64,000 nucleotides of DNA, taken from assembly GCF_030013595.1 (NCBI RefSeq), contig NZ_CP122768.1; one strand, 5' to 3'. The position numbers and the translations under genes were made by a program. Below the pieces are notes generated by a model. The model was not told where the DNA came from, did no database searches, and saw nothing but the letters and a program-made list of their open reading frames with translations. Shown one piece after another: positions 8,552 to 43,977 of the stretch; the first letter of the stretch is position 1, and the number at the start of each line of letters is the position of its first letter. Source of the DNA: Escherichia coli. Lineage in GTDB: Bacteria; Pseudomonadota; Gammaproteobacteria; Enterobacterales; Enterobacteriaceae.

Positions 8552-10993
8552 TCACTCTGCCACTTTTTTCTTCGCCGCACGCTTCGCTTTGGTCGCTGCA
8601 GCTATTTTCTGCGTTTTCGCCGATGGCTTTTTCGCTTTTCTCGCGTCTTTCTTCGCCGCTTTCGGCTTCGTTTTTTTCTCGCCGCGGAAGGCGCTGTCTG
8701 GCTCAAAGTTTACCTTTTTACCGACCTGACGACGCTTGCCGCCTTTTTTGCCTGCATCGCCTTTTTTCGCTTTCTCGCGCGCCGTTTTACCGACGTTGCG
8801 CGGTGCGCGTTCGCTGGAGATCAGGCTAAAGTCGATTTTACGCTCGTCCATATTAACCGCTTCGACGCGAACTTCCACGCGATCGCCCAGGCGATAAGTC
8901 TGGCCGCTGGATTCACCCATCAGGCGTTGCCCTACCTGGTCAAAGCGATAGTAGTCATTGTCCAGCGAAGAGACATGGACCAGACCATCAATGAACAAGT
9001 CGTCCAGACGGACGAAGAAGCCAAAGCCAGTGACGCTGGAAATTACGCCTTTAAAGACGTTACCTACCTGGTCGAGCATGAAGTCACACTTCAGCCAGTC
9101 AGCTACATCGCGTGTTGCTTCGTCGGCACGACGTTCCGCCATCGAACAGTGCTGACCCAGTTGCAGCATCTCTTCCATCGAATAATGGTAACCGCCGGTT
9201 TCAGTAGTGTTGCCCTGATGCCCCTGCTCTTTCGCCAGCAGATACTTAATGGCGCGGTGCAGCGTCAGGTCAGGATAACGACGAATCGGCGAAGTAAAGT
9301 GCGCATAGGACTGCAATGCCAGACCGAAGTGACCACGGTTTTCCGGATCGTAAATCGCCTGTTTCATCGAGCGCAGCAGCATGGTTTGCAGCATTTCTGC
9401 GTCAGGACGATCGGCAACCGACTCCAGCAGCTCCGCGTAGTCACGCGGTTCCGGCTTGTTACCGCCCGGCAATTCCAGCCCCAGCTCCGCCAGCACTGAA
9501 CGGAAAGAGGTAATTGCTTCGGTGCTCGGCTTGTCGTGAATACGGAACAGTGCTGGTTCCTTGGCTTTCTCAACGAAACGCGCCGCCGAGATATTCGCCA
9601 GAATCATACACTCTTCAATTAATTTGTGTGCGTCGTTACGCTGGGTCTGTTCGATACGTTCAATACGGCGTTCAGCGTTGAAAATGAACTTCGCTTCTTC
9701 GCTCTCAAATGAGATCCCACCGCGTTCTTCACGGGCTTTATCCAGCACTTTATAGAGGTTATGCAACTCTTCGAGATGCTTAACCAGCGGGGCGTACTGC
9801 TCGCGCAGATCCTGATCGCCCTGCAGAATATGCCAGACTTTGGTGTAGGTCAGACGTGCGTGAGAGCTCATTACCGCTTCATAGAATTTGTAGCCAGTCA
9901 GGCGGCCTTTCGACGAAACCGTCATCTCGCACACCATACACAGGCGGTCTACCTGCGGGTTGAGCGAACACAGACCGTTAGAGAGCACTTCCGGCAGCAT
10001 CGGGATAACCTGCGAAGGGAAGTACACCGACGTACCACGGTTACGCGCTTCTCTGTCCAGCGGTGTTGGCGGACGCACATAGTAGCTGACGTCGGCAATC
10101 GCGACCCATAAACGCCAGCCGCCGCCGCGTTTTTTCTCGCAGTAAACTGCATCGTCAAAGTCACGGGCGTCTTCGCCATCAATGGTGACCAGCGGTAAAT
10201 CGCGCAGATCGACACGGCCCGCTTTTGCTTCTTCCGGCACTTCTTCTTTCAGCCCGGCAACCTGTTGCTCAACGGCCTGCGGCCAGATATACGGAATTTC
10301 ATGGGTACGCAGAGCGATATCAACCGCCATGCCGGTGCCCATATTGTCGCCAAGTACTTCGACGATTTTACCCACCGCTTTGGTACGGCGAGTCGGGCGT
10401 TGGGTCAGTTCAACTACGACCACAAAGCCCATCCGCGCGCCCATGATCTGATCGGGCGGGATTAAGATATCGAAGCTCAGACGGCTATCGTCAGGAACCA
10501 CAAAGCCGACGCCCGCTTCGGTAAAGTAGCGACCAACAATCTGGCTGGTTTTTGGCACCAGTACGCGGACAATACGCGCTTCACGACGACCTTTACGGTC
10601 AGCACCCAGCGGCTGCGCCAGCACCTGATCGCCATGAATGCAGGTTTTCATCTGCTCGCTGGAGAGATACAAATCATCTTTACGCCCTTCAACCCGCAGA
10701 AAGCCGTAGCCATCACGGTGGCCAATAACGGTACCTTTCACCAGGTCGAGGCGTTCCGGCAGCGCATAGCACTGACGACGAGTGAAGACCAGTTGACCAT
10801 CGCGCTCCATCGCGCGCAGGCGGCGACGCAGGCCTTCAAGCTGCTCTTCGCCTTCAATGTGCAGTTCTACCGCCAGCTCATCACGGCTGGCCGGTTTTTC
10901 ACGTTTGGTTAAATGTTCGAGGATAAATTCCCGACTAGGGATGGGATTCGCGTATTTTTCAGCTTCGCGTTCCTGGAATGGATCTTGTGACAT
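8552..10993 (-). CDS. rnr: Ribonuclease R (RNase II family exoribonuclease, Lys-rich C-terminal tail), 813 aa
   Basis: ORF 8552..11035 trimmed to ATG at 10993 ([20 protein letters not shown]...); S1 domain and basic tail. Confidence 0.9.
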
Positions 10994-39780: not shown

Positions 39781-40314
39781 ATGCGCCTGCTCCCTCTCGT
39801 TGCCGCAGCGACAGCTGCATTTCTGGTCGTTGCCTGCAGTTCTCCTACGCCGCCCCGTGGCGTGACCGTAGTGAATAATTTCGATGCTAAACGCTATCTC
39901 GGTACCTGGTATGAGATTGCCCGTTTTGATCACCGCTTTGAACGTGGACTGGAAAAAGTCACCGCAACATACAGCCTGAGGGATGATGGCGGCCTGAATG
40001 TCATTAATAAAGGCTATAACCCTGACAGAGAAATGTGGCAGCAGAGTGAAGGGAAAGCGTACTTTACCGGCGCACCAACTCGCGCTGCGCTGAAAGTGTC
40101 ATTCTTTGGTCCTTTCTATGGCGGTTATAACGTTATTGCACTCGATCGGGAATACCGCCATGCGCTGGTTTGCGGCCCGGACCGCGACTACCTGTGGATA
40201 CTCTCCCGCACGCCAACCATTTCTGACGAAGTGAAACAGGAGATGCTGGCAGTCGCGACCCGGGAAGGGTTTGATGTCAGTAAGTTTATTTGGGTACAAC
40301 AGCCCGGTAGTTAG
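39781..40314 (+). CDS. blc: Outer-membrane lipocalin Blc, 177 aa
   Basis: Intact ORF; lipobox VVACS; lipocalin GTWYEIA motif. Confidence 0.9.
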
Positions 40315-40628
40315 TGAGTGCTGAGTTTCAGACCAATAATCCCCAATACGATTAACGCCAGACTCGCCAGGCGCATCGGGTTAGCGGACTCGCCGAGCAG
40401 CACAATGCCGGTGATGGCCGCGCCGACTGCGCCAATACCCGTCCACACGGCATAAGCCGTCCCTACTGGTAACGATTTCATCGCCCAGGCAAGTAGCGCC
40501 ATACTGACAATCATCGCCGTCACGGTAATAACACTTGGCGTCAAACGACTAAAGCCGTGGGTATATTTCAGGCCAACGGCCCATACCACTTCCAGCAGAC
40601 CAGCAATAACTAAGATAATCCAGGACAT
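40311..40628 (-). CDS. gdx: SMR-family guanidinium exporter Gdx (SugE), 105 aa
   Basis: ORF 40311..40691 trimmed to ATG at 40628 ([22 protein letters not shown]...); four-TM SMR protein. Confidence 0.9.
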
Positions 40629-40644
40629 ATCAGGCTCCGGAGAA

Positions 40645-40691
40645 TTGGGGCCGTCCCCGGTGAAAAGAGGCGTTTGCAGGTCGTCCTGCAA
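40645..40691 (-). ncRNA. Guanidine-II riboswitch (mini-ykkC motif) in the gdx 5' leader
   Basis: Minus strand reads two GC-stem hairpins with ACGR loops, gcagg-ACGA-cctgc (40676-40689) and gggg-ACGG-cccc (40647-40658), joined by a 15-nt linker, about 20 nt upstream of the gdx ATG. Confidence 0.7.
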
Positions 40692-40802
40692 AGCTGATGG
40701 TTGAACGGATATTTTGCCAGGTGGCAGGGGAATTTCAACTATTACCTTTGTGACTATCGCAAAAAAACAAACGGCACGACATAACTGTCGTACCGTTATT
40801 GC

Positions 40803-40949
40803 TTACTGCTGCGCTTTCGTTGCTGCGCCAGAAATCGCGTTACCGCCATCAGAAATGTCTTCACCAACGCCACGCGTGGTGTTGCAGGCAGTTAATACTG
40901 TTGAAAGCACCAGAACAGAAAAGATCGCTGCAATTGTCTTCTTCACCAT
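40803..40949 (-). CDS. ecnB: Entericidin B small lipoprotein, 48 aa (below the ORF-track length cutoff)
   Basis: Hand translation of the minus strand: [48 protein letters not shown]; lipobox LTAC. Confidence 0.85.
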
Positions 40950-41059
40950 AACGTCTTCCTTTTAGGTAATGTTATTTATGTTTGCCTATAGCAAATTAAT
41001 AATAGACAACATCACCAAAAATGATGGAAATCTGATGATTTTTCGGAAGAGAAGAAAAA

Positions 41060-41185
41060 TTAGCTGGCAGCGCGGGAGATGGAATTACCGAGATGTTTAA
41101 TGTCTTCACCAAAACCGCGAGCGGTGTTACAGCCCGTGAGCAGCGCACTGGCAAGCAAAACAAGAACGATAAGGCGTTTCATCAT
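41060..41185 (-). CDS. ecnA: Entericidin A small lipoprotein, 41 aa (below the ORF-track length cutoff)
   Basis: Hand translation of the minus strand: MMKRLIVLVLLASALLTGCNTARGFGEDIKHLGNSISRAAS*; lipobox LTGC; paralogue of ecnB. Confidence 0.85.
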   Translation of the reverse strand: MMKRLIVLVLLASALLTGCNTARGFGEDIKHLGNSISRAAS

Positions 41186-41236
41186 CTCTGACCTGAATAA
41201 GTGATGGTGCAGCCTGCAGGCCGCACCACAACCGCA

Positions 41237-41803
41237 TTACTTCACGCGAGAGACGTATTCACCAGAGCGGGTATCCACTTTGATGACTTCGCCGATTTGT
41301 ACAAACAGCGGAACTTTAACCACAGCGCCAGTAGACAGGGTAGCCGGTTTGCCGCCAGTACCTGCGGTATCACCTTTCAGGCCCGGATCGGTATCCACGA
41401 TTTCCAGTTCAACGAAGTTCGGCGGAGTAACGGAGATCGGCTGACCATTCCACAGAGTTACGATACACTCTGCCTGATCCAGCAGCCATTTCGCGTTGTC
41501 GCCAATTGCTTTTGCATCAGCAGACAGCTGCTCGAAAGTTTCGTTGTTCATGAAGTGCCAGAACTCACCGTCGTTGTACAGGTAAGTCAGGTTCATATCG
41601 ACAACATCAGCGCCTTCAGCGGAATCAGTAGATTTGAAGGTTTTTTCTACACGAGTACCGGTCAGCAGACGACGCAGTTTAACGCGAGCAAATGCCTGGC
41701 CTTTACCCGGTTTTACGAATTCACTCGCTTCAACCGCGTAAGGTTCGCCGTCTAACATGATTTTAAGACCAGCACGAAAATCGTTGCTATAGTACGTTGC
41801 CAT
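41237..41803 (-). CDS. efp: Translation elongation factor P, 188 aa
   Basis: Intact ORF ([49 protein letters not shown]...) with the modified-Lys loop KPGKG. Confidence 0.97.
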
Positions 41804-41844: not shown

Positions 41845-42873
41845 ATGGCGCATATTGTAACCCTAAATACCCCATCCAGAGAAGATTGGTTAACGCAACT
41901 TGCCGATGTTGTGACCGATCCTGATGAACTTCTGCGTCTTTTGAATATAGACGCGGACGAAAAACTGTTGGCCGGACGCAGCGCCAAAAAGCTTTTTGCC
42001 CTGCGTGTGCCCCGCTCATTTATCGATCGCATGGAGAAAGGCAATCCGGACGATCCTCTTTTGCGTCAGGTACTTACCTCGCAAGATGAGTTTGTCGTCG
42101 CGCCCGGATTCTCCACCGACCCACTGGAAGAACAGCACAGCGTAGTGCCTGGTTTGTTGCATAAATACCACAACCGGGCGCTTTTGCTGGTCAAAGGCGG
42201 CTGCGCGGTAAATTGCCGCTATTGCTTCCGTCGCCACTTCCCCTATGCCGAAAATCAGGGCAACAAGCGTAACTGGCAAACTGCACTTGAGTATGTTGCT
42301 GCGCATCCGGAACTGGACGAGATGATTTTCTCCGGCGGCGATCCGCTGATGGCGAAAGATCACGAGCTGGACTGGTTGCTCACACAACTGGAAGCCATCC
42401 CGCATATCAAACGTCTGCGGATTCACAGCCGTCTGCCGATTGTGATCCCGGCACGCATCACAGATGCGCTGGTTGAACGCTTTTCACATTCTACGCTGCA
42501 AATCTTGCTGGTGAATCACATCAACCATGCCAATGAGATAGATGAAACATTCCGTCAGGCGATGGCTAAGTTGCGCCGGGTCGGCGTTACTTTGCTCAAC
42601 CAGAGCGTTCTGTTACGTGGCGTGAACGATAACGCGCAAACGCTGGCAAACCTGAGTAATGCGTTGTTCGATGCCGGCGTGATGCCGTATTACCTGCATG
42701 TGCTCGATAAAGTACAGGGCGCGGCGCATTTTATGGTGAGTGATGACGAAGCACGGCAGATTATGCGTGAGTTGCTGACACTGGTGTCGGGATATCTGGT
42801 GCCTAAACTGGCGCGAGAAATTGGCGGCGAACCCAGCAAAACGCCGCTGGATCTCCAGCTACGCCAGCAGTAA
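41845..42873 (+). CDS. epmB: EF-P lysine 2,3-aminomutase EpmB (YjeK; radical SAM), 342 aa
   Basis: Intact ORF; radical-SAM CxxxCxxC (CAVNCRYCFRRHF); divergent from efp. Confidence 0.95.
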   Translation: MAHIVTLNTPSREDWLTQLADVVTDPDELLRLLNIDADEKLLAGRSAKKLFALRVPRSFIDRMEKGNPDDPLLRQVLTSQDEFVVAPGFSTDPLEEQHSVVPGLLHKYHNRALLLVKGGCAVNCRYCFRRHFPYAENQGNKRNWQTALEYVAAHPELDEMIFSGGDPLMAKDHELDWLLTQLEAIPHIKRLRIHSRLPIVIPARITDALVERFSHSTLQILLVNHINHANEIDETFRQAMAKLRRVGVTLLNQSVLLRGVNDNAQTLANLSNALFDAGVMPYYLHVLDKVQGAAHFMVSDDEARQIMRELLTLVSGYLVPKLAREIGGEPSKTPLDLQLRQQ

Positions 42874-43107
42874 CTGATTAAACAGGGAAGTTTAATCTTT
42901 GCACGTTGCATAACCTTTAATTATTCATATACATTGCTGTTATTACTTTTTATATAACCAACACCAATAATTAACCTTTCTTTTCTGTTTATATAGAGTG
43001 AGCACGGCTATTTATGTTATTTTAACAACTATTACTACCAAGCCCATTTATCTGGCTTATAAATTAAAATTAATTATTTAATTGAGAAATGGTTAGGGAG
43101 AACCTAC

Positions 43108-43977
43108 ATGGCCATAAGCATCAAGGGTGTTAATACCGGTGTTATTCGCAAGAGCAATAATTTCATTGCACTGGCGCTGAAAATTAAAGAGCCTCGCAAT
43201 AAAGAATCGTTGTTCTTTCTGTCTGTCATGGAACTGCGCGACCTTCTGATTGCGCTGGAAAGCCGTCTGCATCAAAAGCATAAACTGGATGCTGCTGCAC
43301 GCCTTCAGTATGAGCAAGCTCGCGATAAAGTCATTAAGAAAATGGCAGAAAACATCCCAGAAATTCTGGTTGATGAGCTTAAAAATGCCGATATTAATCG
43401 TCGGGTTAACACGCTGGAACTTACCGATAATCAAGGCGAAAATCTTACCTTCGTATTAACGCTACATGACGGTAGCAAATATGAGTTAGTCGTCAATGAG
43501 TTGCAGATTGAAATGCTGGCGCGAGCAATCATTCATGCAATTAATAATGCGGAAATGCGTGAACTGGCATTACGTATTACCTCACTGTTAGATTTCCTGC
43601 CGTTATATGACGTTGACTGCCAGGAAAATGGCAATCTGGAATATGACACCTATTCCCAACCGGAATGGAAACATAACTTGTTCGACCATTATCTGGCGGT
43701 GCTTTACCGCTTTAAAGATGAAAGTGGCAAAGAACAATTTAGCGGCGCAGTGGTGAAAACGCGTGAAGCAACGCCGGGTAAAGAAATAGAGGCGATCACT
43801 CGCCGAATGCTTGATTTCAGCCCACGACTGAAAAAACTCGCGGGTGTACCATGTCAGGTCTATGTTCGCACCGTAGCGGCAAATAACGCCCAACCGCTAA
43901 CCCAGGATCAATGCTTACGCGCGCTGCATCACTTACGTGTTCAATCCACCAGCAAAACTGCACCACAGGCGAAATAA
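43108..43977 (+). CDS. yjeJ: Uncharacterised protein YjeJ, 289 aa
   Basis: Intact ORF; gene and its 234-bp upstream region are visibly AT-rich compared with neighbours. Confidence 0.75.
   Translation: MAISIKGVNTGVIRKSNNFIALALKIKEPRNKESLFFLSVMELRDLLIALESRLHQKHKLDAAARLQYEQARDKVIKKMAENIPEILVDELKNADINRRVNTLELTDNQGENLTFVLTLHDGSKYELVVNELQIEMLARAIIHAINNAEMRELALRITSLLDFLPLYDVDCQENGNLEYDTYSQPEWKHNLFDHYLAVLYRFKDESGKEQFSGAVVKTREATPGKEIEAITRRMLDFSPRLKKLAGVPCQVYVRTVAANNAQPLTQDQCLRALHHLRVQSTSKTAPQAK

Follow-up and report, generated by a model that had tools for sequence, protein, structure and literature searches.

The minus strand of the window, a 64,000-nt stretch of Escherichia coli DNA, carries between gdx and efp two small ORFs that are predicted to encode paralogous lipoproteins of 41 and 48 aa, entericidin A (EcnA) and entericidin B (EcnB). 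The question raised by this locus is whether these ORFs are genes and, if they are, whether EcnB is a toxin that depends on EcnA as its antidote. The entericidin genes were first described in 1998, and the study reportedly covers lysis upon overproduction of EcnB, relief of this lysis by EcnA in cis, and plasmid maintenance. These results are positive evidence for a toxin/antidote model.

Both ORFs are present and intact (Table 1). When the ORFs of the minus strand between 40500 and 41600 are listed down to 20 aa, neither a frameshift nor an internal stop is detected in either of them, and the ends of the segment 40803-41185 coincide exactly with the ecnB stop and the ecnA start. They are absent from the ORF track because the track ends at 60 aa, as pointed out in the original prediction; 41 and 48 aa are both below this default of the ORF lister. 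The 41-aa protein matches NF007319, the NCBIfam equivalog model for entericidin A, with 112.7 bits (cut-off, 86) over residues 1-41 of 41, and the 48-aa protein matches NF007487, the corresponding model for entericidin B, with 121.9 bits (cut-off, 94) over residues 1-48 of 48. The two proteins also match PF08085 with 26.5 and 30.2 bits respectively (gathering score, 23.3). The predicted identity of the two proteins is borne out by these matches and by the RefSeq annotation.

The gdx-to-efp stretch (1551 nt) is matched in 5425 of 5426 complete E. coli genomes, of which 5421 hold at least 80% of it, and is 100% identical to that of E. coli strain HCP5S3_I2. The RefSeq gene order of this strain is blc, sugE, ecnB, ecnA, efp, epmB, and the products of ecnB and ecnA are named 'lipoprotein toxin entericidin B' and 'lipoprotein antitoxin entericidin A' respectively. 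The counterparts in K-12 MG1655 are annotated as b4410 (ecnA) and b4411 (ecnB). Thus, the locus is the known chromosomal entericidin pair of E. coli, which consists of two paralogous genes in tandem that encode very small lipoproteins. Both genes are already known and carry annotation in K-12 as well as in almost all E. coli genomes, and their detection is without discovery value.

Table 1. Positions of the ecnA/ecnB genes, their signals and neighbouring features in the window
Feature	Position	Strand	Details
efp, flanking gene	41237..41803	-	
Stem-loop directly after efp stop	41200..41233	-	no U-tract; RNA fold dG -22.6 kcal/mol
Weak ribosome-binding region of ecnA	41186..41194	-	AGG 41194..41192, 6 nt before first ATG
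ecnA (pre-entericidin A, 41 aa)	41060..41185	-	ATG ORF; NF007319; PF08085; RefSeq CDS at same place
Second in-frame ATG of ecnA	41182	-	sequence reading
ecnB promoter region	40985..41008	-	conserved core; elements of PMC5389655 tentatively placed
Extended sigma-S-type -10 of ecnB, TGTCTATTAT then TAA	41008..40999, with TAA to 40996	-	
-10-like element TGCTATAGG in initially transcribed region of ecnB	40993..40985	-	
ecnB Shine-Dalgarno sequence AAGGAAG	40955..40961	-	AGGA core 7 nt before ATG; SD/anti-SD duplex -5.6 kcal/mol
ecnB (pre-entericidin B, 48 aa)	40803..40949	-	ATG ORF; NF007487; PF08085; RefSeq CDS
Predicted MicA 5'-end pairing site, ecnB codons 1-11	40918..40948	-	RNAduplex
Intrinsic terminator of ecnB	40760..40797	-	12-bp stem, 4-nt loop, T7 run; terminator scan; dG -21.5 kcal/mol
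83-aa TTG ORF antisense to ecnB	40714..40965	+	no Pfam match
Guanidine-II (mini-ykkC) riboswitch upstream of gdx/sugE	40646..40692	-	RF01068, 50.4 bits (gathering score, 32)
Over-extended 126-aa TTG ORF containing the riboswitch	40311..40691		
gdx/sugE, flanking gene	40311..40628	-	annotated ATG start 40628; 105 aa

The locus of the window and that of K-12 share the neighbours epmB, efp, ecnA, ecnB, gdx, blc and ampC and are alike in spacing, terminator stem and promoter core. The EcnB proteins are identical, with one synonymous nucleotide difference between their genes, whereas EcnA of the window differs from that of K-12 by T14A in the signal peptide, together with six synonymous changes in the gene. 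Over 40630..41245 (616 nt), the two sequences differ by 13 substitutions, and beside the terminator T-run their lengths differ by 1 nt. The ecnB terminator accounts for two differences in the loop and for this one-base length difference, at about 40761. The divergence from K-12 is uneven, with 8 of 126 nt in ecnA and 1 of 147 nt in ecnB, and could arise from a recombination boundary or from differing constraint.

The EcnA precursor, as translated from its ORF at 41060..41185, is MMKRLIVLVLLASALLTGCNTARGFGEDIKHLGNSISRAAS. Its predicted signal peptide consists of residues 1-18 and is followed by Cys19 of the lipobox LTGC, so that the mature lipopeptide would be the 23-residue CNTARGFGEDIKHLGNSISRAAS. 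The predicted signal peptide of EcnB consists of residues 1-21 and is followed by Cys22 of the lipobox LTAC, which would leave a mature lipopeptide of 27 aa. Both precursors have a basic n-region and then a hydrophobic stretch up to the lipobox. The core lies directly after the lipobox cysteine, as CNTARGFGEDI in EcnA and in the RGVGEDI version in EcnB, with CNTxRGxGEDI as the common pattern. Thus, both proteins have the succession that defines the family, namely a lipoprotein signal peptide, a lipobox cysteine and an N-T-x-R-G-x-G-E-D core, and both the L-T-[AG]-C lipoboxes and the RG[FV]GEDI core are found as predicted. When a degenerate DNA pattern for C-N-T-x-R-G-x-G-E-D-I is applied to the window, it gives two matches, which are ecnA and ecnB; the chance expectation is 0.00 (no match in 100 shuffles of the window). 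The generic Pfam model for lipoprotein sites, LPAM_1, stays below its cut-off of 20 bits for both proteins (17.7 and 10.8 bits), and such scores are usual with profiles so short. EcnA and EcnB are 52% identical (BLASTP, E = 2e-13), in agreement with their predicted relationship as paralogues.

The helical hydrophobic moments of the mature peptides are 0.59 for EcnA and 0.41 for EcnB, and at most 1 in 1000 shuffled peptides gives a value as high (2000 shuffles). These values are compatible with amphipathic helices that would lie at the membrane surface, an idea already attached to the entericidin family. No sequence match in the PDB is detected at E up to 1 with either protein as the query.

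The lipoboxes suggest that both precursors would follow standard lipoprotein biogenesis. They would be exported by Sec, Cys19 and Cys22 would be diacylglycerylated by Lgt, and the signal peptides would be removed by LspA before the new N-termini are acylated by Lnt. The 23- and 27-residue lipopeptides would then be carried to the outer membrane by LolCDE, LolA and LolB, because both proteins have Asn at position +2 rather than Asp, the Lol avoidance signal. Lipidation of EcnB at Cys22 is asserted by UniProt curation, and the failure to detect intact EcnB by top-down mass spectrometry is attributed to lipidation by the authors of that study (PMC12529367). In the passages of the literature cited in PMC7296081, EcnB homologues are reported in vesicles of Klebsiella, Shigella, Acinetobacter and E. 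coli. A lipidated outer-membrane product, as predicted from the sequence, agrees with the vesicle reports and with the missed top-down detection.

The two genes appear to be expressed from separate signals. The 110-nt spacer between ecnA and ecnB contains the ecnB promoter. When 62 enterobacterial ecnB upstream regions among the matches listed are aligned, the promoter core TTGTCTAT..TTAA...GCTATA..CAAA and the Shine-Dalgarno stretch AAAGGAAGA are kept, and these are the best-conserved parts of the alignment. The promoter ecnB P serves sigma-38 RNA polymerase, whereas sigma-70 RNA polymerase uses it poorly; a -10-like pause element is located near +5, and a pause at +17/+18 overlaps an OmpR site (PMC5389655). 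The element TGCTATAGG probably corresponds to this promoter-proximal pause signal, and transcription of ecnB would start near 40991-40993. In E. coli, ecnB mRNA is repressed by the sRNA MicA, and this repression depends on the 5' end of MicA (PMC3551931). When nucleotides 1-24 of K-12 MicA are paired with the leader and the beginning of the coding region of ecnB by RNAduplex, the duplex has a dG of -18.9 kcal/mol, and 3 of 1000 shuffled targets are as good; the site given in Table 1 is the predicted position of this pairing. Thus, ecnB has its own conserved sigma-S-type promoter with the reported OmpR overlap, a predicted MicA site and its own terminator.

The Shine-Dalgarno sequences upstream of the two ATG codons, which the original prediction proposed as a check, are unequal. 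That of ecnB is good, but the best duplex of ecnA with the anti-Shine-Dalgarno sequence has a free energy of only -3.2 kcal/mol. No promoter-like site is found upstream of ecnA when the window sequence is scanned. The weak Shine-Dalgarno sequence and the absence of a recognisable promoter suggest that ecnA is probably transcribed by read-through from efp. The ecnA start lies 51 nt past the efp stop, behind the hairpin 41233..41200, which is not called by the terminator scan. This hairpin probably terminates transcription leakily or not at all; as a leaky terminator or a stabiliser of the mRNA, it may allow transcription to proceed into ecnA. The first 60 nt after efp also fold stably in the other enterobacterial loci among the matches listed, with a mean dG of about -23. 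A T-run of at least four after the last predicted stem is found in 1 of 49 ecnA-containing loci versus 1 of 11 loci lacking ecnA among the matches listed, a crude count because of extra downstream stems; by eye, T-runs directly follow the efp hairpin in three loci lacking ecnA, those of Pseudescherichia vulneris, Enterobacter asburiae and Escherichia sp. ESNIH1. A tie between a U-tract after the efp hairpin and the absence of ecnA is suggestive only. A literature search covering ribosome profiling and small-protein papers yields nothing that names ecnA and no direct evidence of EcnA translation or expression.

The conservation of the pair is examined in loci collected from species-representative genomes with a plain-DNA pattern scan (at least 120 loci), the small ORFs of which are then searched with the profile. 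Entericidin-family genes are detected in nearly all listed loci. Among the matches listed, ecnA is followed by ecnB in tandem in 52 of the 65 loci with efp or gdx synteny, and the stop-to-stop spacing of the tandem pairs is mostly about 250 nt. The core is invariant or nearly so over the 41 distinct EcnA and 55 distinct EcnB sequences listed, partly because the loci were selected for this pattern, which covers the first 11 codons of the mature part, in one or both genes. For the mature-peptide codons of these enterobacterial sequences, pN/pS (Nei-Gojobori) is 0.21 for EcnA and 0.12 for EcnB, with a pS of about 0.65-0.68 in these comparisons. Both EcnA and EcnB are under purifying selection as proteins, and this selection shows that ecnA does something useful wherever it is kept. 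Mature EcnB is almost invariant across genera among the matches listed, whereas EcnA is more variable.

The pair is not always complete. Among the matches listed, ecnA is absent from the whole efp-to-ecnB interval in seven enterobacterial species: Superficieibacter electus (L007), Pseudescherichia vulneris (L020), Enterobacter asburiae (L023), Escherichia sp. ESNIH1 (L031), Phytobacter massiliensis (L049), Enterobacter sp. ENT03 (L051) and Kluyvera genomosp. 3 (L093). The ecnA of Salmonella enterica subsp. arizonae (L118) has decayed to a pseudogene with a lost start and a disrupted core. In contrast, ecnB is kept in all eight loci and is intact in seven of them; in Kluyvera genomosp. 3, it runs on into a longer ORF of 79 aa. 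The promoter core of ecnB is kept in seven of the eight loci, the downstream TGCTATA element having diverged in Phytobacter massiliensis. These counts refer to the locus, and ecnA could be located elsewhere in the genomes that lack it here; in Budvicia aquatica, the A-like and B-like genes are on separate contigs (L054 and L053). Loss of ecnA with retention of ecnB is the new piece of evidence from this comparison. A toxin-antitoxin dependency predicts the opposite, and EcnA does not look like an obligate antidote because it is lost or decayed beside ecnB.

Entericidin-family genes are also found outside the enterobacteria. The Halomonadaceae have tandem entericidin-family pairs with sequence types of their own (L009, L017, L021, L045, L067, L079 and others), and E or D often replaces the conserved R in their second copy. 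The verrucomicrobial homologues (L003, L050, L059, L094, L109) have a C-terminal extension ending in PPQWPK.

The loci of Citrobacter, Salmonella and Enterobacter resemble that of E. coli in the order efp, ecnA, ecnB, gdx, blc, in the near-invariant mature EcnB and in the ecnB promoter core. They differ from it by a gene for a LuxR/RcsA-like regulator of about 199 aa, which lies between ecnB and gdx in the opposite orientation, in a gap of about 890 nt (for example, at 9775..10374 of L004 and 1678..2265 of L124), and which is called ecnR in the literature. This gene is absent from the window, in which the gap between ecnB and gdx is 174 nt (40629..40802) and contains the ecnB terminator and the guanidine-II riboswitch. 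The riboswitch has two hairpins with ACGR loops, the first of which is mis-called as terminator-like by the terminator scan.

The best overall explanation, for which a probability of roughly 0.9 is estimated, is that the locus is the known and annotated chromosomal ecnA/ecnB pair; nothing speaks against this identity. Overproduced EcnB is reported to be lytic and EcnA to counteract it; more likely than not, this lysis is the overexpression phenotype of an abundant, envelope-associated lipoprotein of the stationary phase, and EcnA is a paralogue with a modulating role, not an obligate antitoxin. Among the small proteins of E. coli, EcnB is one of the most abundant. It is also one of those most commonly detected by mass spectrometry, and in a clpP mutant its amount increases by a factor of more than 100, which fits control by RpoS (PMC12529367).

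A reading that goes further is that ecnAB is not a toxin-antitoxin system at all. EcnB would then be a highly conserved, abundant lipopeptide of the outer membrane or of vesicles with a structural or envelope-stress role under sigma-S, OmpR and MicA control, and EcnA a dispensable, faster-evolving paralogue that is repeatedly lost in the Enterobacteriaceae. The chances of this reading are about even. If it is true, the RefSeq names 'lipoprotein toxin' and 'lipoprotein antitoxin' are misnomers, and correcting an annotation so widely propagated would be of modest interest. The toxin/antitoxin label has its origin in an overexpression study and is not easily reconciled with the abundance of EcnB in healthy cells, the viability of the ecnA mutant and the repeated loss of ecnA with ecnB retained.

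The classical reading, in which the locus is a chromosomal toxin-antitoxin or programmed-cell-death module, EcnB a bacteriolytic lipopeptide that destabilises the membrane in stationary phase and EcnA its dedicated antidote, is rather doubtful. It is the reading expressed in the RefSeq and K-12 annotation and in the names of the NCBIfam models, and the original description of EcnB as bacteriolytic and of EcnA as its antidote is an accurate account of this annotation and of Bishop et al. (1998). According to the parts of that study quoted in PMC7296081 and 10.1101/505081, overproduction of EcnB raises lysis, and co-expression of ecnA with ecnB lowers it. The conserved tandem order and the amphipathic character of both mature peptides also speak for the classical reading. 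However, the Keio collection includes a viable ecnA deletion (PMC7296081), and growing cultures in minimal medium contain as many as about 70,000 copies of EcnB per cell with no lysis reported (PMC12529367). The loss or decay of ecnA beside a retained ecnB in eight species, as seen at this locus among the matches listed, likewise argues against a strict co-occurrence of toxin and antitoxin. EcnB is more conserved than EcnA, which is unusual for a selfish toxin. An association with mobile elements or plasmids is not apparent either, because the pair belongs to the core of the E. coli chromosome and ecnB is matched in only 17 of 72,556 plasmid records. Several of these records are chromosome-sized, and at least one is a hybrid plasmid with a chromosomal epmB-to-blc block; a plasmid-addiction role, considered for these matches, is rejected on these grounds.

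An analogy with mazEF was drawn when the ecn locus was named. The two systems are alike in that they consist of two small adjacent genes, of which the downstream one encodes a product reported to be toxic when overproduced and the upstream one a product that counteracts it. They differ in that mazEF-type modules encode a cytoplasmic toxin and a labile antitoxin, whereas ecnA and ecnB are predicted to encode exported paralogous lipoproteins and have separate transcription signals. Unlike mazEF, ecnA/ecnB is core-chromosomal, not mobile, and its 'toxin' can persist where the 'antitoxin' has been deleted or lost (PMC7296081; locus comparison).

It is improbable that EcnB is instead a bacteriocin-like factor exported against other bacteria, in vesicles or as a peptide of about 3 kDa, with EcnA providing self-immunity. 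Enterobacter sp. C6-6 is reported to secrete a 3-kDa EcnB homologue that lyses Flavobacterium psychrophilum (Schubiger et al. 2015, as cited in PMC7296081), and the vesicle-borne homologues mentioned above would also suit such a factor. In contrast, Atu8019 of Agrobacterium tumefaciens is neither lytic nor inhibitory towards cells or liposomes (PMC7296081). Atu8019 belongs to the Pfam family of the E. coli proteins and is, like them, a small lipoprotein with a lipobox and a mature peptide of similar size, but is encoded by a single gene without an ecnA partner and is shown by experiment to be surface-exposed, vesicle-associated, adhesive and non-lytic (PMC7296081). Moreover, the neighbours of the pair are efp, gdx and blc, with none of the export, processing or immunity genes that typify bacteriocin loci flanking it, and loss of ecnA with ecnB retained argues against a need for immunity.

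That the two ORFs are chance open frames, as their shortness and the weak Shine-Dalgarno sequence of ecnA might suggest, can be dismissed in view of the full-length equivalog matches of both, the core pattern expected 0.00 times, the purifying selection across genera, the detection of EcnB by mass spectrometry (PMC12529367) and the lack of any family match for the overlapping ORFs.

These overlapping ORFs, of 83 aa on the plus strand and 55 aa on the minus strand, are rejected as genes, since they match no family and the selection signal is in the ecn frames. The 83-aa ORF is probably spurious because it has no Pfam match and selection acts in the ecnB frame, yet it is shown on the 60-aa track in the place of ecnB. 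Thus, a cut-off of 60 aa hides real, highly expressed genes and displays a spurious antisense ORF instead.

The genomes of the window and of HCP5S3_I2 differ between epmB and yjeJ. In HCP5S3_I2, a gene for an IS4-like ISVsa5 transposase lies between them (5853..7061 of L001). In the window, a 289-aa ORF, which is yjeJ by its position, starts 235 nt after epmB, and the interval (42873..43108) is free of ORFs of at least 100 aa.
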